Virus record (IMG/VR): IMGVR_UViG_3300030095_006531
Span: 1-64,000 of that record
Length of the DNA: 64,000 bases
Reading direction: 5' to 3' (one strand)
Source of the DNA: a virus
Taxonomy: Duplodnaviria > Caudoviricetes
The first letter of the stretch is position 1, and each line of letters begins with the position of its first letter. Shown here piece after piece: positions 1,741-62,066 of this stretch. The translations under genes and the position numbers were made by a program. Under the pieces are notes generated by a model. It had not been told where the DNA came from. It was given only the letters and a program-made list of their open reading frames with translations, and did not search any database.

Positions 1741-1769
1741 ATAATATCACAGAATTATGAGCCTGTCAA
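1741..1769 (-). promoter_or_regulatory. sigma70-like promoter, likely leaderless
   Basis: TTGACA(1769-1764)-17 nt-TATTAT(1746-1741), TGn extension, ATG 7 nt downstream. Confidence 0.7.
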
Positions 1770-2215
1770 GAAGAAAATTCATCAAATTTACCGGTTTTCC
1801 AGTCAATTTTCATTAATTTTATGTCTTTTTTGTCTTCTGGGAAGTCATCAGCATGATACTGGATGGCTTTGAACTCTTCGTCGTCGTCATCAAAGTGCAT
1901 GTCACTTTTCAAATCTCTGAGCTTGGACCACTTATCTGCTAAATCTGTAAGAAAAAGATCGTCACGTGGGACATTATGGTCATCGAGGAAATCTGTTATA
2001 AACAGTCTGTTGTCTTTTGTGTCTTTTCGACTTGTAACAACATAAACCATAGCACCTTTGGCTTTCAGTTCCTTCATTCTGGTTATTACAATTGGATTGG
2101 GACGCCCATCTTCGGTCATGCGAATCGTATCATCAAAGTCTACAGTCACAACCTCTGGTTGGGGCTCTTGAGCTTCGTTAGTAAATCTGCGCCAGGTTTC
2201 GATAAGGAGTTTCAT
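1766..2215 (-). CDS. HAD-superfamily phosphatase with MKLLIETWRRFTNE leader
   Basis: VDFDDT motif I, VTSR, K, HFDDD. Confidence 0.65.
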   Translation of the reverse strand: MKLLIETWRRFTNEAQEPQPEVVTVDFDDTIRMTEDGRPNPIVITRMKELKAKGAMVYVVTSRKDTKDNRLFITDFLDDHNVPRDDLFLTDLADKWSKLRDLKSDMHFDDDDEEFKAIQYHADDFPEDKKDIKLMKIDWKTGKFDEFSS

Positions 2216-2221
2216 ATGTTT

Positions 2222-2680
2222 TTATTTCGACCAAGAAGTTGTCTGCTGATATTTAGGGGAAATATATTTACCAGATTTTGGATCTCGTTTAAACCCCGCT
2301 TGTTTTAAGGCAGCAATTATTTTTGGATTATTTCCTCCATACTGAGTTACTCCATCAAACTTATTAACACCTTTAGCTTGGTCACGTCCTTTGCCTTTAG
2401 GGGCGGATTGAAAAGAGGTTTCGGTGCCCCCGCTGGTGACACCATGAGTTGTGCGACCTTGCACCACCTTCGTTGGGTCGTCTTGATATAATGCTTGTCG
2501 CCATTTTTTATATGCTTTTTCGTCGGCTTGGGAAGCAAAACTTTGAGCAAATGTCTCTCTTGCTCCACCTGGATATACAGTCGTGGTGCTTCGAGAAGTT
2601 GCGGGATTGTCCGACACCTCCAGCAATTTATCTACTTCTTCTTGAATGATCTGTTGTAATGTTAATTTTGTAAGTTTCAT
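2222..2680 (-). CDS. Hypothetical protein with MKLTKxxLxxIIxEE leader
   Basis: ORF track; start moved to ATG 2680 (GAGG upstream). Confidence 0.65.
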   Translation of the reverse strand: MKLTKLTLQQIIQEEVDKLLEVSDNPATSRSTTTVYPGGARETFAQSFASQADEKAYKKWRQALYQDDPTKVVQGRTTHGVTSGGTETSFQSAPKGKGRDQAKGVNKFDGVTQYGGNNPKIIAALKQAGFKRDPKSGKYISPKYQQTTSWSK

Positions 2681-2718
2681 GTTTGCGTTTAACCTCACGG
2701 GTCATTGTCGGCGAATGG

Positions 2719-3111
2719 TCAACCCTTTTTCAAGCGTTCGCCTGATTCTCCTTTTGCAATCTGAATTGCTTCTTCCATTGTAAGATCGCCATTCTTTACT
2801 TCACGAGCTAGTTCTATGAAAGGATCTTTCTCTTCAACAAACTCTTTAGGAACTTCTAGTCCTGGTCTAGTTCGCTTGTCTAGTTGTTGTAGTGCCTTTA
2901 CGTTGCCTAATTGATTTTTCTGTTTTAAAAGAAAAAGAGCCTTGACAGTATCGGCATCAACACCTTTAGGGATGACATATGTTTCGTTTGGTTTTGTGCC
3001 TTGAACAATCTTTAGAGCTTTCATAAATGCTGGTGTAAAACTTGGGAATTGTGATTGCTCTTGCAACTCTTCCTCAACCATTTCTAGCAATTTTTGTTTA
3101 TTTAGTTTCAT
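2719..3111 (-). CDS. Hypothetical protein with MKLNKQKLLEMVEEE leader
   Basis: ORF track; start moved to ATG 3111. Confidence 0.65.
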   Translation of the reverse strand: MKLNKQKLLEMVEEELQEQSQFPSFTPAFMKALKIVQGTKPNETYVIPKGVDADTVKALFLLKQKNQLGNVKALQQLDKRTRPGLEVPKEFVEEKDPFIELAREVKNGDLTMEEAIQIAKGESGERLKKG

Positions 3112-3445
3112 GTTTTCCACTTCCATTTTGAGGTAGTGACTTCTCCAAATTTAGAGAGCTTAACCTATCGTTTCTTATAATTAGTTTCCTGTCTGTATCG
3201 TAGATATAAAATACTGTTTTTGTTAAGCCATGACGAGTTATGCGAGCTTTCTTGGTCCCATTAATATAAACTATGTCATCAGCATTATAATCATTTCCTA
3301 CAAAAAACATAATCCCTTCAACAAATCTTTGAATTATATTTTTGAAAGTTAATACAGCAATGCCTGCCACAAACATCCACCCATATTGCCCCAACAGGCT
3401 CGACACAATAGCTTTTATTTCTTGTTCTGTCACGCTTAATACCAC
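3098..3445 (-). CDS. Mini MscS-like membrane protein
   Basis: Hydrophobic helix, then FFVGNDYNADDIVYING..ARITRHGLTKT..LIIRNDRL, resembling the MscS TM3/Sm-like beta domain. Confidence 0.5.
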   Translation of the reverse strand: MVLSVTEQEIKAIVSSLLGQYGWMFVAGIAVLTFKNIIQRFVEGIMFFVGNDYNADDIVYINGTKKARITRHGLTKTVFYIYDTDRKLIIRNDRLSSLNLEKSLPQNGSGKHETK

Positions 3446-4011
3446 TCTATTGGGTGAAAAAGAGGAACTTCTTTAAAGAAATCCTCAAGAATTTCCTTGT
3501 CATCCCTGGTATAAATAGCACCTGGTGCTAAGATTATCTTATCGTTTCCTGATTTACTGGGCTTTATATTGTTATATTTGATCACTCCCACAGGTATTAA
3601 TTTGGATTCAGTTGGTGATGAACTTGGAACAATAATCAAATCCCATCCCATATCGTCTGCTGGATTTATTATGTTTGGCCATTCACCATAATCAAAGGGC
3701 AGCGGGTTGTCTTTGGTTGTACCAAAGGCTTTTGCAGAACCACGAGGAACATCTATATGGATTGGCTCATTGGGATTAGCGCGTAAATACTGATGCAACT
3801 TTTCTATGCTTTTTATTTTTATCTTTTTTTGTGGCAATTGAGGTTCTGGGCGACAATAAGGAGAGCCATCGTAGTTAAACCCATTTTGCTCTTGACCTTG
3901 AGGGCATGGCTTCGATGGTTTGCCTGCGGCTACATTGACACCGAATGTGCCAAAAGCGTAAGCATTTTCTTTTATGATATACTTGTGCCACTTTTTGAGC
4001 AAGTGTTCCAC
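3436..4011 (-). CDS. Family I inorganic pyrophosphatase-like protein with leader
   Basis: PFDYGE...ADDMGWDLII...VGVIK...NDKII resembles the PPase YG/DxD/DK motifs. Confidence 0.5.
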   Translation of the reverse strand: MEHLLKKWHKYIIKENAYAFGTFGVNVAAGKPSKPCPQGQEQNGFNYDGSPYCRPEPQLPQKKIKIKSIEKLHQYLRANPNEPIHIDVPRGSAKAFGTTKDNPLPFDYGEWPNIINPADDMGWDLIIVPSSSPTESKLIPVGVIKYNNIKPSKSGNDKIILAPGAIYTRDDKEILEDFFKEVPLFHPIEWY

Positions 4012-4020
4012 AAAACCACC

Positions 4021-5187
4021 CTACTCTTCACCTTCTTGAGATTTAATGAGTTTGTCTGTTCGGTATGCAACTTTGTTCGCATCAGTCCGAGCGACTCGAC
4101 CAGCAGCCATCTGAGAGCCGATTAGGTACTTGTTGATGTTTTGAGATAAGCCATCCAGAGCATCATAGATTGCAACAATATCTGAAGACATTTTGTTGGC
4201 ATATGAGTTGGCCAACTCCGATAAGGATTCTTTAGAGCCTAAATTTAAAATAGCAGTTTCGGAGTTAAATTCGAGGGATGCTAGTTTTTGTTTTTTCTTT
4301 TTCGTACCTCTTACTCTTTTAGTAGTTCCTTTTAAAAATGATGTGGAAACAAAAAATTCAGTCCCCTTTACAAATCCCAGGTCTGGATCGTCGATGTCGA
4401 TGTATCCCGCCAATTCTGGTGTTTCGCCAAAATGTTCTGGTCCATGAATTAGATTACCCTCTTCATCTTGGGTAAAAGCAGACGAGCCGATTGTGAATTC
4501 ATAAAATCGAATTACGGGGGGGTTTGATTTTTCTAGGTCTTTTAAAGCAACCATGTAATTAATGGGCTTGCCGGTTCTGGCTATTGTTCCGATTAGGTCT
4601 TTATAAGAACCATCGATGCTGGATGCACCCTTTCGAAGAAGTTTCAAACTAAAAGGTTTGCCCAACAAATTAACATCAGCAATGTCTCCTGACGCGCCTC
4701 CGGCACGAGATTGACTTGCTGCGATTTTTTCTGAACTTCCTCCCAACAATGCGGCAAGGAAAGCCTCGAACAAAAAACCACCGGCTGAAGCGTCGAAGTC
4801 GTACACAATCGATACTAATACATCCATCGCCATTAATTTCGACAAAATCGTAGAATCAGCTTGTCGAAGGCAACCTGCCTGTTCTTTGCAGCTATTAGCA
4901 AACTCATTAAGGTTGTTTATCTTATCGACCCAGGTTGTTCCTGTTGCAACGCGACGAAGTAATTGTTCGACCTCTGCCCGGTCTTTATTACCGGGCTCGC
5001 CCCAGGCATCGCTAATTTTCGGGTAAGGAATGTTGAGCGTCTTTTTCTCTACCTTGGTTGGTTTTACCGTTGCGCCTCGACGTTTACCGTATCCTGTGTC
5101 TTTTTGCTCGGTTAGAACTTTTGGCTTGTCAGTTTCGGGAGTTTGTTCTAACCAACCCCTCCATTTTTTGTAAGAATAGTCACTCAT
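4021..5187 (-). CDS. Hypothetical protein, possible PD-(D/E)XK nuclease-fold domain
   Basis: GFLFEAFLA...IAD...FSLK spacing; leader MSDYSYKKWRGWLE. Confidence 0.5.
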   Translation of the reverse strand: MSDYSYKKWRGWLEQTPETDKPKVLTEQKDTGYGKRRGATVKPTKVEKKTLNIPYPKISDAWGEPGNKDRAEVEQLLRRVATGTTWVDKINNLNEFANSCKEQAGCLRQADSTILSKLMAMDVLVSIVYDFDASAGGFLFEAFLAALLGGSSEKIAASQSRAGGASGDIADVNLLGKPFSLKLLRKGASSIDGSYKDLIGTIARTGKPINYMVALKDLEKSNPPVIRFYEFTIGSSAFTQDEEGNLIHGPEHFGETPELAGYIDIDDPDLGFVKGTEFFVSTSFLKGTTKRVRGTKKKKQKLASLEFNSETAILNLGSKESLSELANSYANKMSSDIVAIYDALDGLSQNINKYLIGSQMAAGRVARTDANKVAYRTDKLIKSQEGEE

Positions 5188-5198
5188 AATTTATTTCC

Positions 5199-7550
5199 TT
5201 ATTTCTTTAAATATCTTCTCCAAGACTCAAACAACATTTTATCAGACTTCTTTTCTTTTTTTGATTCATTTGTCTGTTTGGTAAAAGGTTTCTCACCTCT
5301 TTCGACATCTTTTAACAAGTCATAATAAGTATAAGCAGATTGCTTATTTAATGCCATCTGATAAGAAGTCTTATTGAACTCCTCTAAAAGCCTTGTTGCC
5401 TTATACAAGTCATCATCATCAAAGTACAATAAATCAAAATCCATGATTGGAAAAATGCCATCAAGCTCTGGTGATAATCTTTGTCTTTCTGGTTTGACAA
5501 CAAAGTTCTTGATAGGAAAATCAACTCGTTTGCGAATGAAGTTTAAGTTCTCACGAAGGTCTGTCGCAAACTCTCTTGACCACAGTCTCTTTAAGAGTGT
5601 TTGGTTTTCTGCTGAAATTTCTTTGAATTCTCTGATGTCTTTTGTGATTGGAATTCTTTGCTTAAAGGTTACATTAATCTCGCGTTCATCAGCATTGATG
5701 ACGGCTCTAACCTTATCCAGATTCTTTAATACCTCTGGTATGTTTGCAATACGATCTTTGATGATGCCTTTTTCTTGCAACTCTTCCCTGATCTCATTCA
5801 TAATAACATCAAATGAATCATCTGCATCTTCAAAGTTACGCGCCCATCTTCTTAAGCTATTGAGATTGTATTGGAAGTAATTGTAGTCTGGATAAAATTC
5901 TGTACGATACATCCCATCACTTCCAATGGGGTCGCGTTTGGTAGTTACGTCATATCCCGCACCAAAATGTCTTTCCAATGCTTTGGTGGTTGCTTTTTTA
6001 ATTTCCTCATCATTAAGTGCCCAAGCACCTCTTCCCAGCGAAAATGGACTGTCAGGATCTGGGTCGGGGTATTCTCCAAACTCTTCTACCGTATCAAACG
6101 CAAACTCGGCGTGATATATGACCGGACTTTCTTCATCGTAAGCATCAATATCTGCATTAATTGTGAACCATTTCATCGAAGCGTTTGCTGGGTCTACAAT
6201 CTCTGTTACTGCTCTTTCAAAAGGATCATCAACATCTTGTTGAATGCGCTTTTCATCTTCTGGGTTTATACCGATGTCGCCAGCTTGGGCCATCATTTCA
6301 TCTTGTTCGGCGTTTGTTAAGCCCTTGAACATTGCCGCAAAGATTCCACCGTCTGATGTGTCTCTGTATGTTCCACCGTATCTTGTCCACTTCTCACCAG
6401 AAACATCGTTTGCAAGCTTGTCAATATCTCCATATGCCTTCTCTTGTGATTTAAGTGCCCAATCAACAACAGACTTTAGAAATCCTGGTGGGGCCTGTCG
6501 GTTTCCTTGCGTGTAAGTTCTAGTCTCGGGAACTGCCAACATCCTTCCATCTTCATCGTGAACAAACTTTCTTAAACGAACCCTGGAAAAGGGTGTCATA
6601 CCTGGAATATCGCGGTCAGTATCCATAAATATCTCTTCATCACCTTGATCCAAATCAACATCCTCTGGATTTGTTTCATCTAGGTTTACATCGAAGTAAT
6701 CTTCAAACTCTTTACGAGGAACCGAGTAGGCGATTGGTCCGTGCCCTCTTGACTCTGCTACTGCACACTGAAAGTATCCACCCGTTCTTGAGTGGCAAGA
6801 GCGAATGTCGTCCATATCTGACATTCTCACCACATCAACTGGGTGTCTCGAAAGGATTGTGATATATGGATCTTTCTTGTCAAATGCTGCGCCAGGATTT
6901 TCTCGATAGAATTGTGACTTTTCATTCCAAAACTTTTTAAACTTTGGGATATTTTGTTCAACTGCGTATAAGTCATCTGTGGCGGAAAACGGTAAAACAG
7001 ATGTGAGTTTTCTTTCCATCGTTTCTTTCTTTTCAATTGCCTTTTTTAATTTTACCTCTTTTGGATCGTCTGGGTCAAAGCCTGCTACATCCATTGCGGT
7101 TTCAGCAGCGTAACCACCAGCATCACTATATTCCTCTTTTGCTCTTTCATATTGTTTGATTACATTTCCGATCATGTCGAGAGCTTTACCGATACGAATC
7201 TTTTGTGTTTTTGTGACTTTTTCTCCTGCTCGTGGTCCCTTTGGGATTACTGTTGTTACATCCTTTGTGACCGTAGAGTCGTCAAAATCAATTTCGTAGC
7301 CATTGTTTTGGAATAAGCGAACGATATTTCCGACTGGACCTTCGGCTGGTGATGGAGGGGGCGTGATTGCGATACGCTTCTTGCCATTGAATAGATTGTC
7401 AAACGAGTATGCCTCTTCAGGGGCATCTCTCATCCATTTTTTAATGTATTCATAGTCGGACTCTGATATTTCATTAAGAACATTTCTTCTTAACTTCTCC
7501 AGCTCTTGCTCTTGAAGATGACCTCTCCAGTTTTCAAACAATAGTCTCAT
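5199..7550 (-). CDS. Large hypothetical protein (783 aa), putative internal head protein
   Basis: Long ORF; N-terminal MRLLFENWRGHLQE and C-terminal MLFESWRRYLKK. Confidence 0.7.
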   Translation of the reverse strand: MRLLFENWRGHLQEQELEKLRRNVLNEISESDYEYIKKWMRDAPEEAYSFDNLFNGKKRIAITPPPSPAEGPVGNIVRLFQNNGYEIDFDDSTVTKDVTTVIPKGPRAGEKVTKTQKIRIGKALDMIGNVIKQYERAKEEYSDAGGYAAETAMDVAGFDPDDPKEVKLKKAIEKKETMERKLTSVLPFSATDDLYAVEQNIPKFKKFWNEKSQFYRENPGAAFDKKDPYITILSRHPVDVVRMSDMDDIRSCHSRTGGYFQCAVAESRGHGPIAYSVPRKEFEDYFDVNLDETNPEDVDLDQGDEEIFMDTDRDIPGMTPFSRVRLRKFVHDEDGRMLAVPETRTYTQGNRQAPPGFLKSVVDWALKSQEKAYGDIDKLANDVSGEKWTRYGGTYRDTSDGGIFAAMFKGLTNAEQDEMMAQAGDIGINPEDEKRIQQDVDDPFERAVTEIVDPANASMKWFTINADIDAYDEESPVIYHAEFAFDTVEEFGEYPDPDPDSPFSLGRGAWALNDEEIKKATTKALERHFGAGYDVTTKRDPIGSDGMYRTEFYPDYNYFQYNLNSLRRWARNFEDADDSFDVIMNEIREELQEKGIIKDRIANIPEVLKNLDKVRAVINADEREINVTFKQRIPITKDIREFKEISAENQTLLKRLWSREFATDLRENLNFIRKRVDFPIKNFVVKPERQRLSPELDGIFPIMDFDLLYFDDDDLYKATRLLEEFNKTSYQMALNKQSAYTYYDLLKDVERGEKPFTKQTNESKKEKKSDKMLFESWRRYLKK

Positions 7551-7556
7551 CTCTTT

Positions 7557-7751
7557 TTACTCACCCTCTTGATTTCTTTCCGTGGCTGCTTTGGGATCTT
7601 TTCCCTCTTCAGCTTTTATACAGTTGCGATATGTTTTTCCAAACATTTCTTTCGTTTTTTGAGTTGGATGAGTTTTGTAACCTTTTTGACAACGCTCCTC
7701 AAGGACTCCCTCAATCATGTTAATTAAAATTTCTTTTGTAAGTTTCATCAA
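7557..7751 (-). CDS. Small basic two-Cys protein with MKLTK leader
   Basis: MKLTKEILINMIEGVLEE then RCQKGY...GKTYRNCIK. Confidence 0.6.
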   Translation of the reverse strand: MMKLTKEILINMIEGVLEERCQKGYKTHPTQKTKEMFGKTYRNCIKAEEGKDPKAATERNQEGE

Positions 7752-8386
7752 TCATAATCCCACTTATCTTCATTATCGCCATAACTAAATAGTTTTTCAT
7801 GACTGATTCGGTCAGGATCATCTGAATCTTTATACACCTTTAGCCAACTAGGGTCATCGAATTTTGCAGGGCAGAGGCTTGAGTCCACGAATCTCATCTT
7901 GTTGTTAGGCCCACAGCAAAGCACACCAGTTTCTTTGTCAAAGAAAAAATTCTTTGTTTTATGTTCATGCCAAACTTCGCTCTGACCATAATCATTTCCA
8001 TGGACCGGCTCTTGTGGATCACAAGTAAAAAGATAAACGCCCTTTAGCATCTTGTTCGTTCTAGAGTACATTTGAACATCTGTTATTTTCATTCCAGCAA
8101 GCTCAATGAGTTGAAAATTATTGGATAAACAATCCCACCAACCTACGTCTTCCATTCTAATTTGATCTCGTGGCGTTTCTTCTTTATTAAATATCGCACA
8201 CTGATCAACCTTGTCGTATAATGCACCCAATGATGGAAACCAAACAAGAAATAGTGGTGCGCGAGCGCGAACAAACCTTATCCCTTGAAGAACACCGAAG
8301 ATGGTTTCATCTTTTCCATAGTTGGGCTTGCCAGAGAGAAATGATTTCTTGACGTAGCACTCAATATAAGGAGTGGATACAATCAT
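7748..8386 (-). CDS. Hypothetical phage protein
   Basis: 212 aa ORF packed between neighbours; WWDC, EHK, PNN motifs. Confidence 0.65.
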   Translation of the reverse strand: MIVSTPYIECYVKKSFLSGKPNYGKDETIFGVLQGIRFVRARAPLFLVWFPSLGALYDKVDQCAIFNKEETPRDQIRMEDVGWWDCLSNNFQLIELAGMKITDVQMYSRTNKMLKGVYLFTCDPQEPVHGNDYGQSEVWHEHKTKNFFFDKETGVLCCGPNNKMRFVDSSLCPAKFDDPSWLKVYKDSDDPDRISHEKLFSYGDNEDKWDYD

Positions 8387-8390
8387 TTAA

Positions 8391-10298
8391 TCACCACTTA
8401 CGACAAGACCAATATCTAGCTTTTGTTTTTGGCCCAGGATTTTTGCAATTATGTCTGGCTCTGAAAGATTTACGACGTTTCGGGTTGGATTTTTTGATTC
8501 TCATATTGGGGTCGCCATAGTTTACTTTCTTAACGTTTCCGGTCTTAGGATCCTTAACAAAGACTTTAAATTTTTTAACATCACCGCGCATTGGTTTGTT
8601 GAGTTTAACCTTTCGACCGCGATATTCTGCCTCTTCCAAAACGTCATCCCAAAACTCCACATCCTCGGCGATAGTTCCGTCGTCATAAGTTGCATCGGTA
8701 ATGTGGTAATAAGTTTCTGTAATATTCTCCACTTCTTCCGCAATAATGTTGTTTAAAAAATCGTTTGTTAATCTCATATCAAACCCCTCACTTTTTTTAC
8801 CCCATTTTTTGCCCTTACCTCTTGTACCACAAGAAGCGGGTGTGGGGCGACACGCCGGGTATTTTGAGCGTTTTTCCCCTTTTTGTCTGCCACAGGATTT
8901 ACATTTTTTCTTACCTGTTTTCTTATCTTTACGACATGTGTTGCAATCTACCCACCCTTTGGACTTGCCTTTTCCACCTTGTCGCTGGAACCAACCATGA
9001 AGACCAGATTTTTTTTCCTTAGAGTAATCCGTTTTGGCAGCTTTCTTTTTCTCTTCAAGTTCTTGTTCAGTCTGTAGCAAGGCTTTCATTCCACGTTTAC
9101 GACTAGCAGCATTAGAATTTACAACCTCATCTCCATATGTGTCTCTCACATCATCAGTTTCTTTCACAAGTTTATCTATTTGGTCAACCTGTTTTTTGTG
9201 CAACTCTGAAGAGTCGGTTGACATTTGAGCAACTTTTGCATGTTTTTTAGCAGAAGACTTTAGTTGTGATTTGATCTTCTTGAGTGTCTCAACTTCTGAG
9301 TCTGTTAGGTCCAACCCTTCCTTGACACCTTTCCAAATTTTCCCTTGTCGGCACTTGACAACTGCACCGGAAGCATATGCTGATGGCCAAACATCGTATT
9401 TTCTTTTGGCAATACGAGTACATCTATCCCCAGCAGATTTCTTTTTCTTCTTCTTTTTCTTCTTTTTTTCATCAATCGACATCATAGCATCATACGAATC
9501 CCTTTTTAAATCAGCCAACTTAGTTAAGTAGCCCGTGTTTCTCAGTGTCTTAAAGGCCAAATTTTCTACAGAATATTCACCGTTTGTTTCAAGACCAGAC
9601 TTTCTCAGTTTTTTAAGCTTATCTCTCAAGGATATGGAGCGGTCGTAGGCGGCTTCGTATTCACCTTCTTCACTTAACTTAATGGCTTCATCAATTTGCG
9701 CCATCAATGAGTCGGCTTTTATCGCTACGCTGTCCTCATCAATATCTGATTCTGTTTTTTCCGGTTCTTTTTTCCACTGATCATTCATAACAGAATAAAC
9801 ACCACTTGATGTGTGTGGCTCCTTGTCGTCTTGAACATATACTTCAACCTCAAAACCTTTTATTTTGATGTCGTGCATAGAGTTCCACAATGATTTGACT
9901 GCGTTGAAGTATCCCCTCACCAATTCTTCATTCGAGTTTACTTCCTTAAAATCAATCAAGATGTGAAGATCAATATCGGATAAGTCTGTGTAGTTGTAAT
10001 TGGCCAAGGAGCCTGTGAATGTGATGTCTTTTATTTCGGCGTCAGATCCCAATGTGGGTTTGATAAACTTTTCAGCAATATCAATTAATCTGTCTCTTAT
10101 TTCACTTTTTAGTTTTTTGCTCTCATCCCACAGTTGTGGATTTAGCTCTTCTCTTGGCTTTAAGAGTGTGGGAATCTTTATAGCGACCTCCTCTTGTATG
10201 AGGTCGTTTAACCTAGTCATAAAAATATTTGTAGTTTTTGATCCGCCCACAACTTGCTCCAACTCTTCCTCACTCAGTTCGCCGTCTATCCTTGGCAT
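8391..10298 (-). CDS. Pol-beta-superfamily nucleotidyltransferase fused to basic Cys-rich modules
   Basis: TGSLANYNY..SDIDLH (GS..DxD) and EVYVQ; C-terminal K/R-rich modules; GGAG RBS. Confidence 0.75.
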   Translation of the reverse strand: MPRIDGELSEEELEQVVGGSKTTNIFMTRLNDLIQEEVAIKIPTLLKPREELNPQLWDESKKLKSEIRDRLIDIAEKFIKPTLGSDAEIKDITFTGSLANYNYTDLSDIDLHILIDFKEVNSNEELVRGYFNAVKSLWNSMHDIKIKGFEVEVYVQDDKEPHTSSGVYSVMNDQWKKEPEKTESDIDEDSVAIKADSLMAQIDEAIKLSEEGEYEAAYDRSISLRDKLKKLRKSGLETNGEYSVENLAFKTLRNTGYLTKLADLKRDSYDAMMSIDEKKKKKKKKKKSAGDRCTRIAKRKYDVWPSAYASGAVVKCRQGKIWKGVKEGLDLTDSEVETLKKIKSQLKSSAKKHAKVAQMSTDSSELHKKQVDQIDKLVKETDDVRDTYGDEVVNSNAASRKRGMKALLQTEQELEEKKKAAKTDYSKEKKSGLHGWFQRQGGKGKSKGWVDCNTCRKDKKTGKKKCKSCGRQKGEKRSKYPACRPTPASCGTRGKGKKWGKKSEGFDMRLTNDFLNNIIAEEVENITETYYHITDATYDDGTIAEDVEFWDDVLEEAEYRGRKVKLNKPMRGDVKKFKVFVKDPKTGNVKKVNYGDPNMRIKKSNPKRRKSFRARHNCKNPGPKTKARYWSCRKW

Positions 10299-10482
10299 AC
10301 TTGCTCCACTTATTAATTAGTTCACAAGTGTTATTAAGGTCTACACTTTTTGGCACTTCACATACAGGAAATAATCCATGTAAAATCAAGACCAGTCCTC
10401 GTATAAAAAGTTGTATACCCATTGCAGAAGCAAACTTAAGGTGGCTGAAATAAGTCTCATTATTCTCTCTCAGGTGTTTCAT
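10270..10482 (-). CDS. Small hypothetical protein
   Basis: ETYFSHLKFA...LILHGLFP; overlaps neighbours operon-style. Confidence 0.6.
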   Translation of the reverse strand: MKHLRENNETYFSHLKFASAMGIQLFIRGLVLILHGLFPVCEVPKSVDLNNTCELINKWSKYAKDRRRTE

Positions 10483-11092
10483 CTTTAACCAATTCCTTAT
10501 TAATTATTTTATAACCTTTTACCACACCAAGGTTTACATGATCAAAGTCATCAAGAATAACCATTTTTTGTGGACAATTTGTTTTTTCATTCATATAAAA
10601 GCACGAGATTTGCCCAACAACTTCTGTGAACATTGCTGGAACAGCATCTGGTGGGATCATTTTAACATGAGTATTGTATGCTTTTAACTCTCCCAGGTAA
10701 GAAAAAGGAACTTTTTTTTGAACGTGACCACCAAAGTCGTGAACAGTTCTGAATTTTGCATTCGTTTCTGCATCAAAGATTGGATGTTCCGCATCTGCTG
10801 TTGAGATTAAGAGAACACCTTCGTCTTTGACTCTCTGAATCATTTCTTTGGAAGATTTGTAAGGATGATAGTCAACAAACTCTACGTCCACCACTCCCAC
10901 AATCCTCTCAAAGAATTTATTAACCCAAGCCGCCAACGCTTCGTAACTTGCAACCGCTTCTGGTTGTTCGTCTGGTGCATCCATATAGGCTTGGCCCACA
11001 AGTTGCATGTATTTATCCCAACCATTTTCGCCTGGTTTCAAAACCAACTTCTCGTTGAGAAAATTTCTCCATTGTTCCATTAATAGTTTCAT
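10460..11092 (-). CDS. Hypothetical protein with leader, possible metal-binding HDxxxH..E
   Basis: MKLLMEQWRNFLNE start at 11092; NAKFRTVHDFGGH...GELKA. Confidence 0.65.
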   Translation of the reverse strand: MKLLMEQWRNFLNEKLVLKPGENGWDKYMQLVGQAYMDAPDEQPEAVASYEALAAWVNKFFERIVGVVDVEFVDYHPYKSSKEMIQRVKDEGVLLISTADAEHPIFDAETNAKFRTVHDFGGHVQKKVPFSYLGELKAYNTHVKMIPPDAVPAMFTEVVGQISCFYMNEKTNCPQKMVILDDFDHVNLGVVKGYKIINKELVKDETPERE

Positions 11093-11514
11093 ACTCGGTC
11101 TTCCTCTCTCCATTCAAAAATATCTTCGTCCTCATACACTGATCTTAAATAGCCGTGCCAATCTGAACTATACACTAAAGCGTCAAATGTATCGTCGCCT
11201 GACAGCCATTTTTGAAATATACGATGATTGCCGTCTTCAATGATTAATTGTTCTTTGTTAAGATCATACCAAAGAAGAGGAAGACCTTCGGTCATACTTA
11301 GTTCTCCCCTCCTAATGTCTCTCAGTATCGCATCCCCTTGAGATCTTAACATAGTGATCAAGTTCATTGGTATGTTCTTGACAAGAACGGCGTCGTCTTC
11401 ATCGTTGCCCGTCCCTTCATAGATTTCTGGCGGCATCTGAAACACCTTACCAGTGATTGGACTTTTTACACCTTCGGTCAAGAATTTTTTAAATCTCTCC
11501 ATTAAGAGTTTCAC
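11089..11514 (-). CDS. ParB/sulfiredoxin-like domain protein with leader
   Basis: PLL..IIEDGNHRI motif; GTG start MKLLMERFKKFLTE. Confidence 0.6.
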   Translation of the reverse strand: MKLLMERFKKFLTEGVKSPITGKVFQMPPEIYEGTGNDEDDAVLVKNIPMNLITMLRSQGDAILRDIRRGELSMTEGLPLLWYDLNKEQLIIEDGNHRIFQKWLSGDDTFDALVYSSDWHGYLRSVYEDEDIFEWREEDRV

Positions 11515-12020
11515 TCTTCTTCATCCTCCGATGGAACTTCAAACTTAACTACGTTTCCTACTTGCTCAACCTTCGTTCCTGGTGGCATATTCTTTTGGAG
11601 AAATTTCATATAAAGGTTGGTTCGTTTAGTGGGGAGCCACATTGCATCAACAGATCCAGATTTTGGTATGCCTTCAAATACAAATTTAAGATTGCCCTCG
11701 TGATATTCAGGGGTATTAATAAACTCTCTAATTACAGCAACAATTGTTGACATTATTTTTAAAGGTTCGTTTTCGTTCGTCATCTCTGTAGAGCCATCAT
11801 CGCCAACATCAAATACAATATTCCAAGGAAGTTTTCCTTTACCAAGGAGTTTGTCGTTGTCAAACCCAACATAATATTGTAGCCCTGAATCTGTTATGAA
11901 TTCATAAAAGTATTGATCATCGGCAGGAAATGCGTTGTGAAGCTTAAACGGATAAGGATCAATAGAAAGATCACCAATCTCTGCCAAATACTTTTTCCAT
12001 TGTTCCATTAATAGTTTCAT
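11511..12020 (-). CDS. Hypothetical protein with leader
   Basis: MKLLMEQWKKYLAE. Confidence 0.65.
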   Translation of the reverse strand: MKLLMEQWKKYLAEIGDLSIDPYPFKLHNAFPADDQYFYEFITDSGLQYYVGFDNDKLLGKGKLPWNIVFDVGDDGSTEMTNENEPLKIMSTIVAVIREFINTPEYHEGNLKFVFEGIPKSGSVDAMWLPTKRTNLYMKFLQKNMPPGTKVEQVGNVVKFEVPSEDEEE

Positions 12021-12414
12021 TTTATAAAGTTTTAATCCAAGAAGATAGTTCTTCTAATGTTCTTCTAAAGTTTCTAACCCACTCATCTTCGTCTGCTGCC
12101 ATCTCTTTACGATCTATGTATTCCATTTCAAGATCGGCATAATTGTTTTTAAAATAATCATCTGGATTGTTTAATGAGTTAAGAGTTTCTGAATCTTCTG
12201 GTTGAATTCCAATCTCCATGACATACTTCAAGTCACTTCCCTCACTTTCCAAATCATCTTCGAGCCATGACCAATCATCACCTGCTTCATCGACAATTTT
12301 ACGTGCTAAACGCGCAGCCAGATTTCCAGCCAACATATCGTCTGTATAGTCTTCACTTCTCCAGTCGCTACTTTCAGTTAAATACTTTTTCCATTGTTCC
12401 ATTAATAGTTTCAT
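11986..12414. repeat. 35-nt exact direct repeat at two gene starts (11986-12020, 12380-12414); 25-nt third copy at 11068-11092
   Basis: aaatactttttccattgttccattaatagtttcat is identical in both copies by direct comparison. Confidence 0.9.
12022..12414 (-). CDS. Acidic hypothetical protein with leader
   Basis: MKLLMEQWKKYLTE. Confidence 0.65.
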   Translation of the reverse strand: MKLLMEQWKKYLTESSDWRSEDYTDDMLAGNLAARLARKIVDEAGDDWSWLEDDLESEGSDLKYVMEIGIQPEDSETLNSLNNPDDYFKNNYADLEMEYIDRKEMAADEDEWVRNFRRTLEELSSWIKTL

Positions 12415-12737
12415 TAAAATGTCTCCTGTTCTCCATCTTCATAAGTTATAATTGTTTTGTTTGCTGGATGTGGTTGAATGTGAACCTTAATAAAATCATC
12501 CATTGAATCAAACACAGCAATACCACCGCGAGGAGGTGGATACAACCAGTGAATAACCGCTTGTCCTGTTGCTAATTTAACTCCCTCGATCACAACACCC
12601 TCGCCAGAAACACCTGTCTCATCTGTCTGCCTAAATACGGTAAATGAGCGAATTCCACGAGGTGCAAGTTTGGGTAAGGGTTGTGGCTTCAGTTCTTGTA
12701 ACTGCTCTAATTCTTTCTTTTTTGTCGGCAAAATCAA
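12414..12737 (-). CDS. Hypothetical phage protein
   Basis: FTVFRQTDETGVSGEGVVIEGV motif. Confidence 0.65.
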   Translation of the reverse strand: MILPTKKKELEQLQELKPQPLPKLAPRGIRSFTVFRQTDETGVSGEGVVIEGVKLATGQAVIHWLYPPPRGGIAVFDSMDDFIKVHIQPHPANKTIITYEDGEQETF

Positions 12738-13708
12738 CCTCCAGGAGCACCTGGTGGGGCAGAGCCGCGATAGTCAATCGGTGCCTTTTCCTTGAAAGGT
12801 CCACTATCTTGATTGCCTCCGTGCCTCAAAAGTCTTTTCATCTGCTTTATTAAGCGAGGTTTTAATTTTGTTTGGAAGTCTTCTTCGAGTGCTCCCAAAA
12901 ATGCAGACAACTTTTCACCTTCTGTTTCGATACTTGAATCCATATCATCGTCTGTTGCTATGATATGGAAAAAATTATCTCCGAATAATTCTCTATACGG
13001 CTCACGATTTTTACTAACCGCATTCCAAGATCGCTCTACTGATTTGGCATCCAGCGAGCGTCCGCCTCTTTCCAAACGATCTTGCTGGCGAGATAATGTA
13101 GTTTCAAGGGGAATATCAACAAAGATCATCCCAACATCGTACCCAAGCTCTTCCAGCTTATTCTTCTGGTTTCTAATGACCCCAAATTGACCACCAGTCC
13201 CGTCTACAATAAAGCTTTCACCAGCTTCTATTGAGGCTTGTTGTTTTTCTTTAGCGGCTTTTCGGGCTTTGTTAAACAATATAGCCATTTGGCTCATCTT
13301 GCTCCTGGTGAGTTCATAATCTTCCATTGTCTTTTCAAGATTATAGATGAAAGTTTTATCACCATTGGATTCTTGGCTGGCTGAAACATAAAGATCCTGA
13401 AGAACATCATGGCTCCAGCCATCTTCTGGCTCTTGCAATTGCAAAATTTGACTTAACAGTTCTTTTAGTTTTGTTCTGGCATTACTAAAATCATCTTTTA
13501 TTTTTGCTATGTTCTTTCCAAGACCTGACTGATCCAACATTGGTTCATAAAAATCATCGGGATTTATTATGTCCAACGTTTCCAACCCTAACCTATCAAT
13601 TACCGTAGATTTGCCTGCACCTGGTGCTCCTGCCATAAAAATAACTTTAGGTGCTACAGTCTCCTGTTCACCCAGATGCCGACGCCAGCTTTCCATTATG
13701 AGTTTCAT
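12734..13708 (-). CDS. Zeta-toxin-like P-loop kinase with leader
   Basis: FMAGAPGAGKST, INPDD, IVDGT, R..RGGR; MKLIMESWRRHLGE. Confidence 0.7.
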   Translation of the reverse strand: MKLIMESWRRHLGEQETVAPKVIFMAGAPGAGKSTVIDRLGLETLDIINPDDFYEPMLDQSGLGKNIAKIKDDFSNARTKLKELLSQILQLQEPEDGWSHDVLQDLYVSASQESNGDKTFIYNLEKTMEDYELTRSKMSQMAILFNKARKAAKEKQQASIEAGESFIVDGTGGQFGVIRNQKNKLEELGYDVGMIFVDIPLETTLSRQQDRLERGGRSLDAKSVERSWNAVSKNREPYRELFGDNFFHIIATDDDMDSSIETEGEKLSAFLGALEEDFQTKLKPRLIKQMKRLLRHGGNQDSGPFKEKAPIDYRGSAPPGAPGG

Positions 13709-13924: not shown

Positions 13925-13932
13925 TAAATAGT
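13925..13932 (-). promoter_or_regulatory. ACTATTTA putative late promoter
   Basis: Recurrent intergenic motif; here at the head of the leader-gene array. Confidence 0.6.
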
Positions 13933-13959: not shown

Positions 13960-13991
13960 AAAGGTGACTTGCGAATTCACAAGTCACCTTT
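13960..13991 (-). terminator. Rho-independent terminator after hsp20
   Basis: aaaggtgacttg/caagtcaccttt 12-bp stem followed by a U-run on the - strand. Confidence 0.8.
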
Positions 13992-14420: not shown

Positions 14421-14476
14421 ATCATTTCCTCCGTGTCTATAACTTAAGCACCATAAATTTAGCGTCAAGCCAAAAA

Positions 14477-60317: not shown

Positions 60318-62066
60318 TTAGAGTAAGTCTTCTACGATTACGAGTCCGTACATATCTGGACGCACCATCTTCTTACCGTAACGGGTCATGACACCCTTAC
60401 GTGGTACGAAGTCTTCTGGTCCAAAAATGGTTGGAGTAACTTGTAATGGCACATAAGGTGCATATACGTAGCCACTTTCTAGGAAGCTATTGCCCTTACG
60501 ACCTACAAGTAGAACATTTCGTGGGAAATATGGATCAACATAGATGTCCCATTTCTTGCTCACTTGGCCAACCTTAACTGCACCGGCAGTTCCACGATTC
60601 TCATCGGCTGTTGTGTCAGCACGGAAACCACTAGTAAACTCAAGAACGTTTGCAACTTCTGGGCTAGTAACGATAAAGTTCGCCCCGCCGCGAAGTGTCT
60701 TTCTGTGAATTTGTGCAGAAACATCATTGACTGTCTCAAGAAGTGTCTCGTACCATTCAGAAACAGTACCTGTGAAATCCGGATACAATGTTTCGTTGGT
60801 AGATGAACCGCCTGGGGCAGCTGCTGTTCCGCTACGCGCTACAAACTTACCTGGTTTACGTGACCAGAAGAAAGTTCCTGCTTGTGCGCCAATAATCAAA
60901 TCTTCAAGAATTTCTTGATCGATTTCAAGTGCAATTGTTTCAGAAAGAATACCAGTCAACTCAACTTCAGCATCCAAGTTGTGGTATGCATTGATGTCTT
61001 GTTGCAGTTCTGGTGTCCATTTGGCCTTTAACTTCTTGGTTACAGCGGTGATTGATACACTGTCAACCTTGATGTCAATTTCTGGAATTTGGTTTGTATT
61101 TTCAAGTGCCCAGTCGGTTCGACCAACAATAGCACCTTTTGCAACACCAGAGGTGGTGAATGCATCTACAATTGAACCAGTTGCAATATCAACCAGAGGT
61201 ACAGAAGCGGTAATGTCACTATTTTTATTAGCAGCACCAGTCCACTCAAAGACAAAAAGAAGCTCAGTGCCGTCACGACCTCCACCAACAAAAGAGCCAC
61301 TGCTAAGTTGCGTTAGGCGTCGAACTTGTCGAATGTTAGTAAGACTACCAACAGAAGCATCATTTACTTCAACCGTGATTAAATCATCAAAATTGAGTGT
61401 TTTTTGAGCTGTTTCAAAGCTGGATCTAGCAATTGAGCCAATGCCGACAACACTACCTGAAAGATCAGGGTCATAACGAGTGATCGCATTAGCGTTTGCG
61501 GGAGTTAGGCTTGACCACGAGGCTGCATCTGTTGCAGACGCTGTACCCCAACCCAATAGTGTGGTTGTCAAAGATGCAAATGAAGCAGTTGGACTAGAAT
61601 AGCCATTATTAAGAGCGTAAAAGCTCTTCTCTGCATTAGCACCAGTTAGATCAACACCACCAGTGATTTGATTACCAACTGCACCACCGCCATAGACGGA
61701 ATTGCCTTTAGTATACTGCGCCTTGGTGTCTCCATAGGTAAAGTCTAGGAAGAAAATAAGGCCAGATGGCAAGCTCATTGGTTGAACTGACACTAGCTCA
61801 TTTGCGATTAGTCCACCAAATACTCGACGGACAATTGGAAATGCAACCGCAGCGAAGCCTTCAACATCACTACCTTGCATTGTAGATGCTTCACGAAGAA
61901 GCTCTTTTGCTTGGTTTTCAAGAAGTGCAGCCATACTATTACGACCGTGATCACTCTCTAAACCTTCTAGAAGACCAGTTTTTTCCCATTTGTTGAGAAC
62001 AGCTTGACCTTCTTTTTGGACATTGCGACTAACAATACCCTCAGTAAGTTTTTCGATAATACTCAT
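60318..62066 (-). CDS. Major capsid protein (T4 gp23-like)
   Basis: KWEKTGLL, VQPMSLPSGLIF, KKLKAKWTPEL.QD, EID.EI, YAPYVPL, PRKGVMTRY. Confidence 0.95.
   Translation of the reverse strand: MSIIEKLTEGIVSRNVQKEGQAVLNKWEKTGLLEGLESDHGRNSMAALLENQAKELLREASTMQGSDVEGFAAVAFPIVRRVFGGLIANELVSVQPMSLPSGLIFFLDFTYGDTKAQYTKGNSVYGGGAVGNQITGGVDLTGANAEKSFYALNNGYSSPTASFASLTTTLLGWGTASATDAASWSSLTPANANAITRYDPDLSGSVVGIGSIARSSFETAQKTLNFDDLITVEVNDASVGSLTNIRQVRRLTQLSSGSFVGGGRDGTELLFVFEWTGAANKNSDITASVPLVDIATGSIVDAFTTSGVAKGAIVGRTDWALENTNQIPEIDIKVDSVSITAVTKKLKAKWTPELQQDINAYHNLDAEVELTGILSETIALEIDQEILEDLIIGAQAGTFFWSRKPGKFVARSGTAAAPGGSSTNETLYPDFTGTVSEWYETLLETVNDVSAQIHRKTLRGGANFIVTSPEVANVLEFTSGFRADTTADENRGTAGAVKVGQVSKKWDIYVDPYFPRNVLLVGRKGNSFLESGYVYAPYVPLQVTPTIFGPEDFVPRKGVMTRYGKKMVRPDMYGLVIVEDLL

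Follow-up and report, generated by a model that had tools for sequence, protein, structure and literature searches.

Two short N-terminal leaders, carried by otherwise unrelated genes in an array at positions 1766-13708 of an uncultured, distant marine T4-like phage, probably act as tags that send a hypervariable set of host-takeover enzymes to the prohead core and have them processed there, in the manner of the capsid targeting sequence (CTS) of phage T4. The window analysed here is a stretch of 64,000 nucleotides from a 76-kb genome fragment (G000). The analogy is partly supported; it fits all the indirect tests run.

We posit that both leaders are the counterpart of the CTS in this phage lineage. 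Each leader, as a short N-terminal helix, would let the new protein bind the scaffold core while the prohead assembles, and a gp21-type prohead protease would then remove it after a Glu, leaving a mature cargo that may stay in the head and enter the host along with the DNA. Class A comprises 14 residues (MKL[LI][MF]E.W[RK].[FY]L.E) with two candidate L-x-E sites, at E6 and E14, its first half apparently copying the protease's own self-cleaved N-terminus, whilst class B comprises about 22 (MK[IL]TK..L..[IL][IV].EE..[VL][LM].E), mostly on small proteins whose genes lie within or next to the head module. Free exchange takes place behind the tags, and therefore payloads differ between related phages.

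Two leader classes in an array of unrelated genes

The array genes to which the analysis refers are as follows; bit scores are those of the leader HMMs.
12734..13708, minus strand: class A leader MKLIMESWRRHLGE (13667-13708) on a 324-aa zeta-toxin-like/AAA_33 P-loop kinase (35.0 bits; Pfam Zeta_toxin 1.4e-12, AAA_33 1.6e-8); ATGA overlap with the upstream gene
12022..12414, minus strand: class A leader MKLLMEQWKKYLTE on an acidic 130-aa protein (33.8 bits); no Pfam or PHROG match
11511..12020, minus strand: class A leader MKLLMEQWKKYLAE on a 169-aa protein (31.8 bits); no Pfam or PHROG match
11089..11514, minus strand: class A variant MKLLMERFKKFLTE, with a GTG start and an eighth residue F in place of W (16.3 bits); the protein, of 141 aa, contains a DGNHR motif; GTGA overlap; no family match
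10460..11092, minus strand: class A leader MKLLMEQWRNFLNE on a 210-aa phrog_3170 protein, function not known (27.6 bits; phrog_3170 3.7e-20); ATGA overlap
8391..10298, minus strand: 635-aa multi-module ORF (phrog_36119 9e-49, aa 45-274; phrog_7595 1.3e-12, aa 555-635)
7557..7748, minus strand: weak class B leader MKLTKEILINMIEGVLEE on a 63-aa Cys-motif protein (10.2 bits); ACTATTTA 34 nt upstream
5199..7550, minus strand: class A leader MRLLFENWRGHLQE on a 783-aa protein (19.3 bits); no Pfam, PHROG, PDB or Atlas assignment
4021..5187, minus strand: degenerate half-leader MSDYSYKKWRGWLEQ on a 388-aa protein of a widespread viral family (-0.1 bits; Atlas feature score 0.96 to viral hypothetical clusters)
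3436..4011, minus strand: degenerate half-leader MEHLLKKWHKYIIKE on a 191-aa protein (-0.5 bits); no family or PDB match
2719..3111, minus strand: class B leader MKLNKQKLLEMVEEELQE on a 130-aa protein (16.1 bits); no family found
2222..2680, minus strand: class B leader MKLTKLTLQQIIQEEVDKLLE on a 152-aa protein (32.4 bits); no family found
1766..2215, minus strand: class A leader MKLLIETWRRFTNE on a 149-aa HAD-type phosphatase-like protein with a DFDDT motif (17.5 bits; phrog_1238/415/8630 1.8e-9 to 7e-5; weak Pfam 5-nucleotidase)

Leader profile HMMs were trained solely on IMG/VR sequences, with those of the window left out. Seven class A N-termini, at minus-strand ORF starts 2215, 7550, 11092, 11514, 12020, 12414 and 13708, scored 16-35 bits (runner-up 3.9 bits), and seven class B N-termini scored 10-34 bits (runner-up 5.6 bits). 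Three class B leaders lie inside the array, at minus-strand ORF starts 2680, 3111 and 7748, whilst five further class B genes lie outside the window (G000 66210, 72154, 75114, 75613 and 76056), where they adjoin head genes, namely those for the protease, terminase and portal. The gene at 66210, missed by a simple gene caller, was found as the eighth of its class by a six-frame scan (29 bits; E-values there down to 1e-8). At least 15 genes are therefore leader-tagged in the 76 kb of G000, and a strict leader regex run over all six frames of the 64 kb matched solely at ORF starts. The ten class A and class B starts given in a preliminary description of this DNA are thus real. That description had also admitted 4011 and 5187 as looser class A members; both score about 0 bits and match the motif in its latter half alone (W-[RH]-x-[WY]-[LI]), and the score at 4011 means that it is not a full leader. 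Five array genes have no leader. Start/stop overlaps typical of translational coupling occur at 13708 and 11092 (ATGA), 11514 (GTGA) and 12414 (TAATG).

Leader copies were also found away from gene starts. The 783-aa ORF, whose protein has a distant homologue in the related genome G005 (1e-22), carries an additional class A copy, MLFESWRRYLKK, at its C-terminus directly before the stop (5202-5237; 13.4 bits). Two class-B-like cores are internal to the 635-aa ORF, which runs from a double-glycine-type N-terminus through the core at 10220, a nucleotidyltransferase module, a Lys/Cys-rich middle and the core at 8777 to a C-terminal module; contig L014 has a homologous layout, again with an internal core. 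Such a double-glycine-type start is what one might expect if the leaders were recognised by a RiPP-like or radical-SAM modifying enzyme, yet Radical_SAM is present in just one of four complete leader-bearing genomes and in none of the G000 fragment, whereas an S77 protease occurs in every complete leader-bearing genome tested, and the cargos, far from being short peptides, are folded enzymes with lengths of 60-900 aa. We find this explanation barely credible.

No similarity at E<0.01 was found among 17 cargo regions, and the cargos are, as first claimed, mutually unrelated. Their proposed nature as a nucleotide-processing payload stands in part: the zeta-like kinase is confirmed by its Pfam match, the HAD phosphatase is backed by its DFDDT motif and PHROG matches, and the nucleotidyltransferase module can be added. 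The PPase-like and nuclease-like assignments found no backing in Pfam, PHROG or PDB searches, a weak restriction-endonuclease-like fold lead for 4021..5187 aside (TM 0.35-0.49 to a SmaI-like cluster in the Atlas), and the ParB-like label had the DGNHR motif as its sole basis. An AF2 model of the 11089..11514 protein was unusable (pLDDT 48). RNA-library contigs cover 10460..11092.

Regulatory signals of the array

Three candidate signals flank the array.
13960..13991, minus strand: intrinsic-terminator-like hairpin with a 14-bp stem and T-run, ending the Hsp20 unit upstream of the array
13925..13932, minus strand: promoter-like motif ACTATTTA at the array head, 8 nt ahead of the first array gene (start 13917), with sense-strand bias
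1741..1769, minus strand: sigma-70-like promoter match, TTGACA-17-TATTAT with TG, the region's best (11/12 consensus matches; consensus match only)

A second copy of ACTATTTA lies at 7786-7793. The motif occurs 16 times in sense and twice in antisense orientation in G000 (28:2 in G005), and in both genomes it also precedes sheath, tube, scaffold-like and other structural genes, which, together with the terminator-like hairpin that bounds the array, speaks for the CTS-like reading. The sigma-70-like match lies at the lower end of the array, ahead of the leaderless genes 1386-1733 and 808-1404.

Leaders are portable between cargos and restricted to viral contigs

Contigs of uncultured viruses commonly carry both leaders, whereas real cellular genomes and the five cultured relatives examined carry neither. 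The class A pattern was found in at least 119 viral contigs; its two occurrences among 185,579 prokaryote genomes are both on phage-like MAG contigs, leaving none in a real cellular genome. Clustering of 167 class A proteins gave 108 unrelated cargo clusters. Six cargo families are found behind either leader class, and a possible homologue of the 63-aa Cys-motif protein in contig L258 bears a class A leader (BLASTP E=0.004). The cargo census includes kinases, phosphatases, SAM lyase, NUDIX hydrolases and GNAT acetyltransferases. Kinases, SAM lyase, NUDIX and GNAT proteins would be equally expected of ordinary early genes. Whilst the core genes of G000 and G005 share 61-66% identity, their leader cargo is almost wholly unshared, and a nucleotidase is tagged in G005 and untagged in G000.

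This extreme cargo turnover would also fit conserved 5' ends that serve chiefly as recombination homology, allowing cassettes to be exchanged when phages co-infect a cell (a proposal made for the ip loci of T-even phages), with a functionless peptide. Three adjacent leaders have 27-36 identical nt, synonymous positions included (the first 36 nt are identical between the 12414 and 12020 genes), and the C-terminal copy in the 783-aa ORF resembles a stranded leader. Most leaders, however, differ at synonymous sites whilst retaining the peptide, and upstream DNA is not common to them. Furthermore, M1, K2, L3, E6 and W8 of class A are invariant across 108 unrelated families, which argues for selection on the peptide. 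Recombination homology as the chief role of the leaders therefore seems very improbable to us; it would in any case complement the CTS-like reading and does not exclude it.

Leader endings match the specificity of a gp21-type protease

In T4, gp21 cuts after Glu in L/I-X-E, and an N-terminal CTS of 10-20 residues brings unrelated proteins into the core (PMC9026906, PMC5694885, PMC3012670). A search that fixed residues 1-10 alone gave 170 unique class A leaders, of which 136 (80%) carried [LIVM]12-x-E14, with conservation collapsing past E14; the exceptions mostly have a one-residue insertion, and the leader at 2215 ends in TNE, not [LIV]-x-E. With residues 16 onward of class B left unconstrained, 115 of 221 proteins have the Glu of the next [LIVM]-x-E at residue 21/22, and 163 of 221 have it no later than residue 26, as compared to 41 of 221 for shuffles. 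The motif [LIV]-x-E carries little information.

G000 encodes a protease of the gp21 family (Peptidase_S77, 1e-32) together with a T4-type sheath, tube and capsid protein.
60318..62066, minus strand: T4 gp23-type major capsid protein (tblastn to T4-superfamily capsid proteins; alignment)

The predicted capsid maturation site in G000 and G005, ELLRE/A (the slash marks the cut), aligns with T4 gp23 FLTE65/A, and prohead protease specificity thus looks conserved with T4 as judged from the alignment. Peptidase_S77 is present in all nine complete genomes with leaders that were tested and in 16 of 20 contigs with class B, some of just 39-56 kb, an association confounded by lineage because all T4-like phages have the protease; it could reflect no more than a limitation of the tags to a single T4-like lineage. 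The gene immediately upstream of the protease bears a class B leader in G000 and a class A leader in G005. All 21 aligned proteases, that of G000 and 20 from other leader-bearing genomes, begin M-x(0-3)-K-x(0-1)-[LV][LI]-x-E-[FY], e.g. MKLLREYF, with the Glu invariant. This start and the LLRE of the capsid site resemble the class A start MKLLMENW, an LL.E.aromatic likeness to the protease that was spotted post hoc. Among T4 N-termini, the loose core L[LI].E.[WFY] occurs in gp21, Alt and the Alt duplicate only. The leader HMMs gave no score to the N-termini of T4 CTS, gp21 and gp68 or to that of the G000 protease, and homology between the leaders and T4 CTS, gp21 or the phage's own protease is therefore unsupported.

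The cleavage-motif endings and the capsid site would be expected equally of propeptides that regulate enzymes, keeping them inactive or unstable until clipped or marking them for late destruction, without stable packaging or delivery; class A also mimics the N-terminal protease segment that, in T4, blocks the active site (PMC9958956). As the T4 protease is active only within the completed prohead (PMC9958956), a substrate must be inside to be cut, and hypervariable, non-essential cargo suits a delivered payload better than a regulatory circuit. We judge a purely regulatory role improbable.

Rather unlikely, in our view, is that the leaders dock another shared partner or place unrelated to the capsid, such as a phage chaperonin, host machine, membrane or oligomerising helix, [LIV]-x-E being incidental to a Leu/Glu-rich amphipathic helix. 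The phage's GroEL and Hsp20 genes adjoin the array, the cargo types are typical of early host-takeover enzymes, and an AF2 model predicts the leader as a helix. Nevertheless, [LIV]-x-E marks the exact end of the conserved block in both leader classes, which are independent, class B genes sit within the head module and are protease-linked even on 39-56 kb fragments, and the leader resembles both the protease's self-cleaved N-terminus and the capsid maturation site. In addition, the leaders are charged and lack the hydrophobic core of a signal peptide or membrane anchor, and their amphipathic moment is not significantly greater than that of shuffles. Taken together, these results are most consistent with prohead targeting and processing.

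Comparison with known systems

Like the T4 CTS of IPI, IPII, IPIII and Alt, which gp21 removes, the leaders are N-terminal tags of roughly 10-20 residues on unrelated, dispensable proteins, end in L/I-x-E and occur with a gp21-family protease in the genome; like T4 internal proteins, their cargo is hypervariable between related phages. In the T4 CTS, residues 4 and 7 (Tyr, Phe) act in targeting and 8 and 10 (Ile, Glu) in processing (PMC9026906). Their class A counterparts may be the hydrophobic residue 4, invariant Trp8, Leu12 and Glu14, and M1, K2 and E6 are identical between MKTYQEFIAE and MKLLMENW, although leaders and T4 CTS have no significant sequence match. Function has been established experimentally for the T4 CTS, whilst the leaders are known from sequence. 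Unlike T4, with four tagged genes in its whole genome, this phage has at least 15 in 76 kb, two interchangeable leader classes (14 and about 22 residues) and many recognisable enzymes among its cargo.

The nine N-terminal residues of T4 gp21 (MNEPQLLIE/TW) sit in the active site and are self-cleaved (PMC9958956), and CTS-like core targeting by this propeptide, a role itself unproven, was a speculation in PMC9026906. 'LIE-9' and class A MKLL-x-E-x-W share an L-L-x-E-x-aromatic pattern, and the leader-bearing phages' own proteases start comparably with MKLLREYF or MSKVLLREYY, their Glu invariant; the resemblance is a pattern of 6-8 residues, undetected by the leader HMM and noticed post hoc.

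In phiKZ-like giant phages, many head-internal proteins are processed after Glu, and their propeptides were proposed as prohead-targeting (PMC5694885). Those of the inner-body and ejection proteins (phiKZ, 201phi2-1, SPN3US) are cut by gp21 homologues at S/A-x-E, a different P3 preference, and are mostly >100 residues with no short shared tag, whereas the tags here are short, nearly invariant and portable. Phage P1 pre-loads its Dar antirestriction proteins in the head and injects them with the DNA, and these counter-defence proteins carried in the capsid resemble the payload proposed here. Dar incorporation is hierarchical and protein-dependent, and is not known to use a short shared cleavable leader.

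Since a conserved CTS on hypervariable internal proteins is already established for T-even phages, putting the array forward as a candidate for an undescribed system, as was done initially, was too strong; what is new here are the leader families, their scale and their enzyme cargo.

A distant marine member of the T4 superfamily

The record is 76,456 bp long, with the window as its first 64 kb and a CheckV completeness of 42%, and nearly all genes in the window lie on the minus strand. The window encodes a T4 gp23-type major capsid protein (60318-62066), whose nearest cultured counterparts are those of Microcystis phage Mel-JY01 (36% identity), Flavobacterium 'immuto' phages and Rhodothermus phage RM378, along with tail sheath and tail tube proteins; a T4 gp21-type prohead protease (Peptidase_S77, 1e-32) is encoded just past the window end, at 65265-65870 of the whole record (hereafter G000), the S77 match itself covering 65340-65798. 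Taken together, the capsid protein, sheath, tube and S77 protease identify the phage as a distant marine member of the T4 superfamily. A related genome, G005, is complete at 203 kb and has a core syntenic with G000 (portal 66%, terminase 61% and protease 64% identity). DNA of the leader-bearing gene array described below recurs near-identically in marine and seawater metagenomes of several 2013-2025 studies, while among cultured phages neither megablast of 20 kb of the window nor tblastn of a 783-aa protein from the array gave a match.

Within the head gene module, just past the window, lies a bS21 homologue (G000 64697-64840, minus strand; Pfam Ribosomal_S21, 7.5e-10, above cut-off), and in Mel-JY01 an annotated RpsU occupies the equivalent position. 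Four paralogous proteins of 135-140 aa (window 63380-63787 and 31001-31423; G000 63787-64209 and 64209-64622), three of them encoded in tandem between a scaffold-like gene (62090-63304) and the protease, share the N-terminal motif G-L-G-x-V-G-[SA]-Y-Q-[VS]-S-[GSA]-K-P-[FY]; a homologue is found in G005 (125755-126186), and a PHROG search of one paralogue returned no match. At the opposite end, truncated by the window edge, is a gene for a Cys-rich predicted lipoprotein with MopE-type putative metal-binding repeats (1-762, minus strand; Pfam Cu-binding_MopE, 5.5e-18).

Two leader peptides head otherwise unrelated proteins

The preliminary description had proposed that at least 12 otherwise unrelated genes of an array at 1766-13708 begin with one of two leaders, class A and class B. 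As refined here, class A has 14 residues (MKL[LI][MF]E.W[RK].[FY]L.E) and class B about 22 (MK[IL]TK..L..[IL][IV].EE..[VL][LM].E), and the array is on the minus strand. All leader starts listed there are true ORF starts, several overlapping the upstream stop (ATGA, GTGA, TAATG) in a manner that fits translational coupling. To avoid circularity, profile HMMs for both classes were built from IMG/VR contigs only and then run on this genome. Seven N-termini matched class A at 16-35 bits, the next best N-terminus scoring 3.9 bits, and seven matched class B at 10-34 bits, followed by one at 5.6 bits; a six-frame scan (E-values down to 1e-8) revealed an eighth class B gene at G000 66210 (29 bits), which was missing from our crude gene calls. 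Profile-supported leaders thus number 10 in the interval and 15 in the record. For two members described as looser, at 4011 and 5187, a full leader is not supported: only the W-[RH]-x-[WY]-[LI] half is kept. Comparable half-leaders occur in G005, and the W-R-x-F-L-x-E half of class A may work alone.

The array therefore stands as described, but the tag system is larger, with five further class B genes beyond the window (G000 66210, 72154, 75114, 75613 and 76056, beside protease, terminase and portal genes) and additional leader copies within a 783-aa and a 635-aa ORF. The tagged proteins are indeed otherwise unrelated, as no mutual similarity was detected among 17 cargo regions, that is, the protein parts after the leader. 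Synonymous codons differ between leaders and the upstream sequence is not conserved, so it is the leader peptide that selection maintains; such synonymous variation speaks against the leaders being purely a recombination module. Three adjacent leaders have 27-36 identical bases in common, a sign of recent exchange, and recombination at leaders probably drives cargo turnover.

Signal sequences of other kinds fit poorly. A Sec, Tat or lipoprotein signal peptide, or a membrane anchor, would also stand at the N-terminus, but both leaders are charged (class A at E6, K/R9-10 and E14; class B at K5, K9, K13, E14 and E15) and lack a hydrophobic stretch; the amphipathic moment of the consensus leaders was not significantly above that of shuffles. 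Neither do they fit a recognition tag for RiPP or radical-SAM chemistry, given that a Radical_SAM enzyme is encoded in only one of four complete leader genomes and nowhere in this record.

Cargo is diverse, rapidly replaced and found behind either tag

Stripped of their leaders, 167 class A proteins fell into 108 clusters, with 84 singletons. A Pfam census of one representative per cluster identified Zeta_toxin/AAA kinases, NUDIX proteins, protein kinases, GNAT acetyltransferases, Peptidase_M23 and SAM lyase, as well as RNase_T, a tRNA-ligase-type phosphodiesterase, nucleotidyltransferase and EF-hands, with no Pfam family for about 90% of clusters. PDB sequence searches with four cargo proteins gave nothing below E=0.3, the AF2 model of a 141-aa 'ParB-like' cargo had a pLDDT of 48, and ESM Atlas searches with the 783-aa protein and a 388-aa protein returned only unnamed viral clusters and weak restriction-endonuclease-fold leads.

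Despite the kept leader, almost no tagged cargo is common to G000 and G005, and the deoxyribonucleotidase homologue has a class A tag in G005 but none in G000 (808-1404). Six cargo families were found behind either tag, which points to the two tags being functionally interchangeable; in one such pair of contigs (L070 with class A, L160 with class B) the proteins are 37% identical over 160 residues (1e-20), homology beginning directly after the leader. The slot directly upstream of the protease, where G000 has a class B gene and G005 one of class A, was also considered as a leader swap and rejected, as the cargos are not homologous. Two G005 genes bear partial class A motifs: one next to the protease (123980-125050), with ..RVATWRTFLNEG.. 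about 16 residues in, and a nucleotidyltransferase homologue (189895-190866), with MSFDKWREFLAE at its start.

Leaders are confined largely to phage DNA and accompany the prohead protease

Searches of IMG/VR with degenerate DNA patterns recovered class A in at least 119 stretches, at ORF starts in all matches listed, and class B in at least 120, where the matches listed often form tandem arrays of small ORFs and often share contigs with class A. Across prokaryotes (one genome per species, 185,579 species) the class A pattern had two matches, both of which look like binned phage DNA: an Opitutia MAG contig, probably of phage origin because it holds two leaders of each class within 8 kb, and a 3.4-kb Undinarchaeota MAG contig with one class A leader. 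Neither pattern was present in five cultured relatives (HTVC008M, Melnitz, immuto, S-RIM2 and Mel-JY01). Full-text literature searches for the leader strings yielded no paper, and those for tags like the T4 capsid targeting sequence (CTS) in metagenomic T4-like phages yielded only work on T4 and giant phages.

Peptidase_S77 was present in all nine complete (≥90%) leader-bearing genomes tested, six of six in one set and three of three in another, and in 16 of 20 class B contigs. The latter include fragments of 39-56 kb, so class B genes lie physically close to the protease.

Leader ends match the cleavage motif of gp21-type proteases

T4 gp21 cuts after Glu in L/I-X-E, and in the 10-residue CTS of IPIII, positions 4 and 7 are important to targeting, and positions 8 and 10 to processing (PMC9026906). 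Because our first class A pattern had imposed L12 and E14, we rescanned with residues 1-10 only fixed; with the end thus unconstrained, 136 of 170 unique class A leaders (80%) have [LIVM]12-x-E14. Most exceptions carry a one-residue insertion (YILKE, YLLTE), conservation drops off straight after E14, and the window member at 2215 ends in TNE, unlike L/I-x-E. For class B, searched with residue 16 onward unconstrained, the Glu of the next [LIVM]-x-E is residue 21 or 22 in 115 of 221 proteins, and falls at or before residue 26 in 163 of 221 versus 41 of 221 in shuffles. In an alignment of capsid proteins, the T4 maturation site FLTE65|A lies opposite ELLRE|A in G000, ELLRE|N in G005, IVSE|A in immuto and LISE|A in Mel-JY01, and gp21-type cleavage specificity therefore appears conserved in the clade. 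An uncalibrated complex prediction that paired residues 27-201 of the G000 protease with the N-terminal 40 residues of one class A protein scored 0.00, which speaks neither for nor against binding.

These observations are consistent with leaders that are removed by the protease during head assembly. The leaders may alternatively serve as tags for some other partner, or in protease-dependent regulation without packaging.

Class A leaders resemble the N-terminus of the protease itself

T4 gp21 begins MNEPQLLIE|TW, and its first nine residues occupy the active site of the pre-active enzyme before self-cleavage (PMC9958956); it has been speculated that this propeptide targets gp21 to the core as a CTS would (PMC9026906). 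The leader at 2215 begins MKLLIETW. We aligned the protease of this genome with 20 from other leader-bearing genomes, and all 21 start M-x(0-3)-K-x(0-1)-[LV][LI]-x-E-[FY] (for example MKLLREYFELC), the Glu being invariant. The loose core L[LI].E.[WFY], a pattern chosen after the gp21 sequence was seen, occurs at nine places in G000: in the seven class A leaders, at the start of the protease and at one internal site. The only T4 proteins that have it among their first few residues are gp21, Alt and the annotated Alt N-terminal duplicate. The class A HMM scored neither on T4 N-termini nor on the protease of this phage, and a six-frame search of T4 with both leader HMMs stayed at noise level; homology to the T4 CTS, gp21 or gp68 is therefore not established. 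The likeness of class A leaders to protease N-termini is thus best described as a resemblance, short of demonstrated homology.

Leader copies within and at the ends of larger ORFs

Two ORFs of the array carry additional copies:

8391-10298, minus strand: 635-aa ORF, starting with a double-glycine-type peptide, ELSEEELEQVVGG
5202-5237, minus strand: second class A leader copy, C-terminal in the 783-aa class A protein, MLFESWRRYLKK, followed by the stop

After its initial peptide, the 635-aa ORF continues with a nucleotidyltransferase module, then a part rich in Lys and Cys that includes 11 Lys in a row, and finally a C-terminal module; class-B-like cores precede the modules (MTRLNDLIQEEV at 10220 and MRLTNDFLNNIIAEEVE at 8777). 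In another contig (L014), a homologous Cys-rich part is likewise followed by an internal core, and the ORF could be a polyprotein cut at internal tags. At about 8598, within the C-terminal module, DNA contigs from two different studies (X9 and X4) diverge into the same foreign sequence, a shared strain-variant junction. The C-terminal class A copy of the 783-aa ORF lies 11 nt before the next gene, at whose own start there is a half-leader (MSDYSYKKWRGWLEQ); the copy has the look of a scar left by cassette exchange or gene fusion.

Context of array expression

The array genes are tightly packed and overlapping, and two elements lie at the array head:

13991-13960, minus strand: strong terminator-like hairpin after the Hsp20 gene
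13925-13932, minus strand: ACTATTTA, between the hairpin and the first array gene (start 13917)

Genes for Hsp20 (14019-14468, minus strand, 9e-17) and full-length GroEL (16135-17706, minus strand, phrog_5725, 3.7e-137) are situated immediately upstream of the array. ACTATTTA recurs at 7786-7793 and at 14 other sense-strand sites in G000, with sense versus antisense counts of 16:2 in G000 and 28:2 in G005. In both genomes it lies 4-60 nt upstream of structural genes (sheath, tube, scaffold-like and others); it also precedes some tagged genes and is absent from the replication module. We regard it as a candidate late-type promoter element of the lineage, differing from TATAAATA of T4. Sigma-70-like promoters in the array numbered 52 against 39.7 +/- 7 expected, an uninformative excess overall, the best site of the region being at the array's lower end, ahead of two untagged genes. 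This context fits late co-expression of tagged and structural genes, the role of the motif being inferred.

Coverage by RNA contigs from two metatranscriptome libraries, both made from a single marine sample, is limited to 9535-11337 and 11992-12181 and reaches ~20x; DNA sequenced from that sample covers the full 20 kb at 2-5x. The higher depth in the RNA libraries suggests that these parts of the array are transcribed in situ, whatever the timing.

A proposed prohead-addressing system and its relation to known phages

We think it rather probable that the leaders are CTS-like tags for head loading and protease processing, a mechanism that the sequence evidence motivates well. A fuller scheme is tentative, and on balance we doubt that it holds in its entirety. 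Under it, proteins of an abundant marine 'far-T4' lineage would be sent to the prohead by tags copied from the N-termini of core components: class A would be the protease's self-cleaved docking propeptide in portable form, and class B would reproduce the N-terminus of a small core protein. Cargo loaded by the two interchangeable tags would comprise well over a hundred unrelated effector families, probably thousands, including kinases, SAM lyase, NUDIX hydrolases and acetyltransferases as well as multi-module polyproteins that are cleaved at internal copies of the tags. The host would receive this cargo ready-made, as an immediate arsenal for counter-defence and takeover.

Should cargo loading by the tags be borne out, a sequence of 14 residues could be used to look for effectors that virions deliver in uncultured marine phages. 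This would bring to light a large and rapidly evolving collection of proteins that are candidates for counter-defence and host takeover, lend comparative weight to the unproven idea that the gp21 N-terminal propeptide is a capsid-targeting signal, and supply new portable tags for packaging foreign proteins into phage heads. T4, with its three internal proteins, would then be a modest instance of a far larger strategy.

Homologues of the zeta-like kinase of the array are encoded by Methylophilales phage Melnitz (L122, 5950-6618) and Pelagibacter phage HTVC008M (L121, 5953-6615), both lacking the class A tag. That of Melnitz begins MKTFAELQE, which ends in L-x-E and resembles the T4 CTS MKTYQEFIAE, so these pelagiphage-type myoviruses may use a T4-like tag.

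The principle of a conserved, cleavable CTS on diverse, dispensable, injected internal proteins, with counter-defence as a possible role, is already established for T-even phages (PMC3012670, PMC9026906). To the T4 CTS our leaders bear a positional likeness only (M1, K2, hydrophobic 4, E6, aromatic 7/8); their sequences differ, they form two classes and they have no significant match to it. What sets the present system apart is the tags themselves, the count of genes that carry them (at least 15 in 76 kb, compared with four in T4), a cargo that is broader and enzymatic, the resemblance of one tag to the propeptide of the protease, and polyprotein-like ORFs with internal tag copies.
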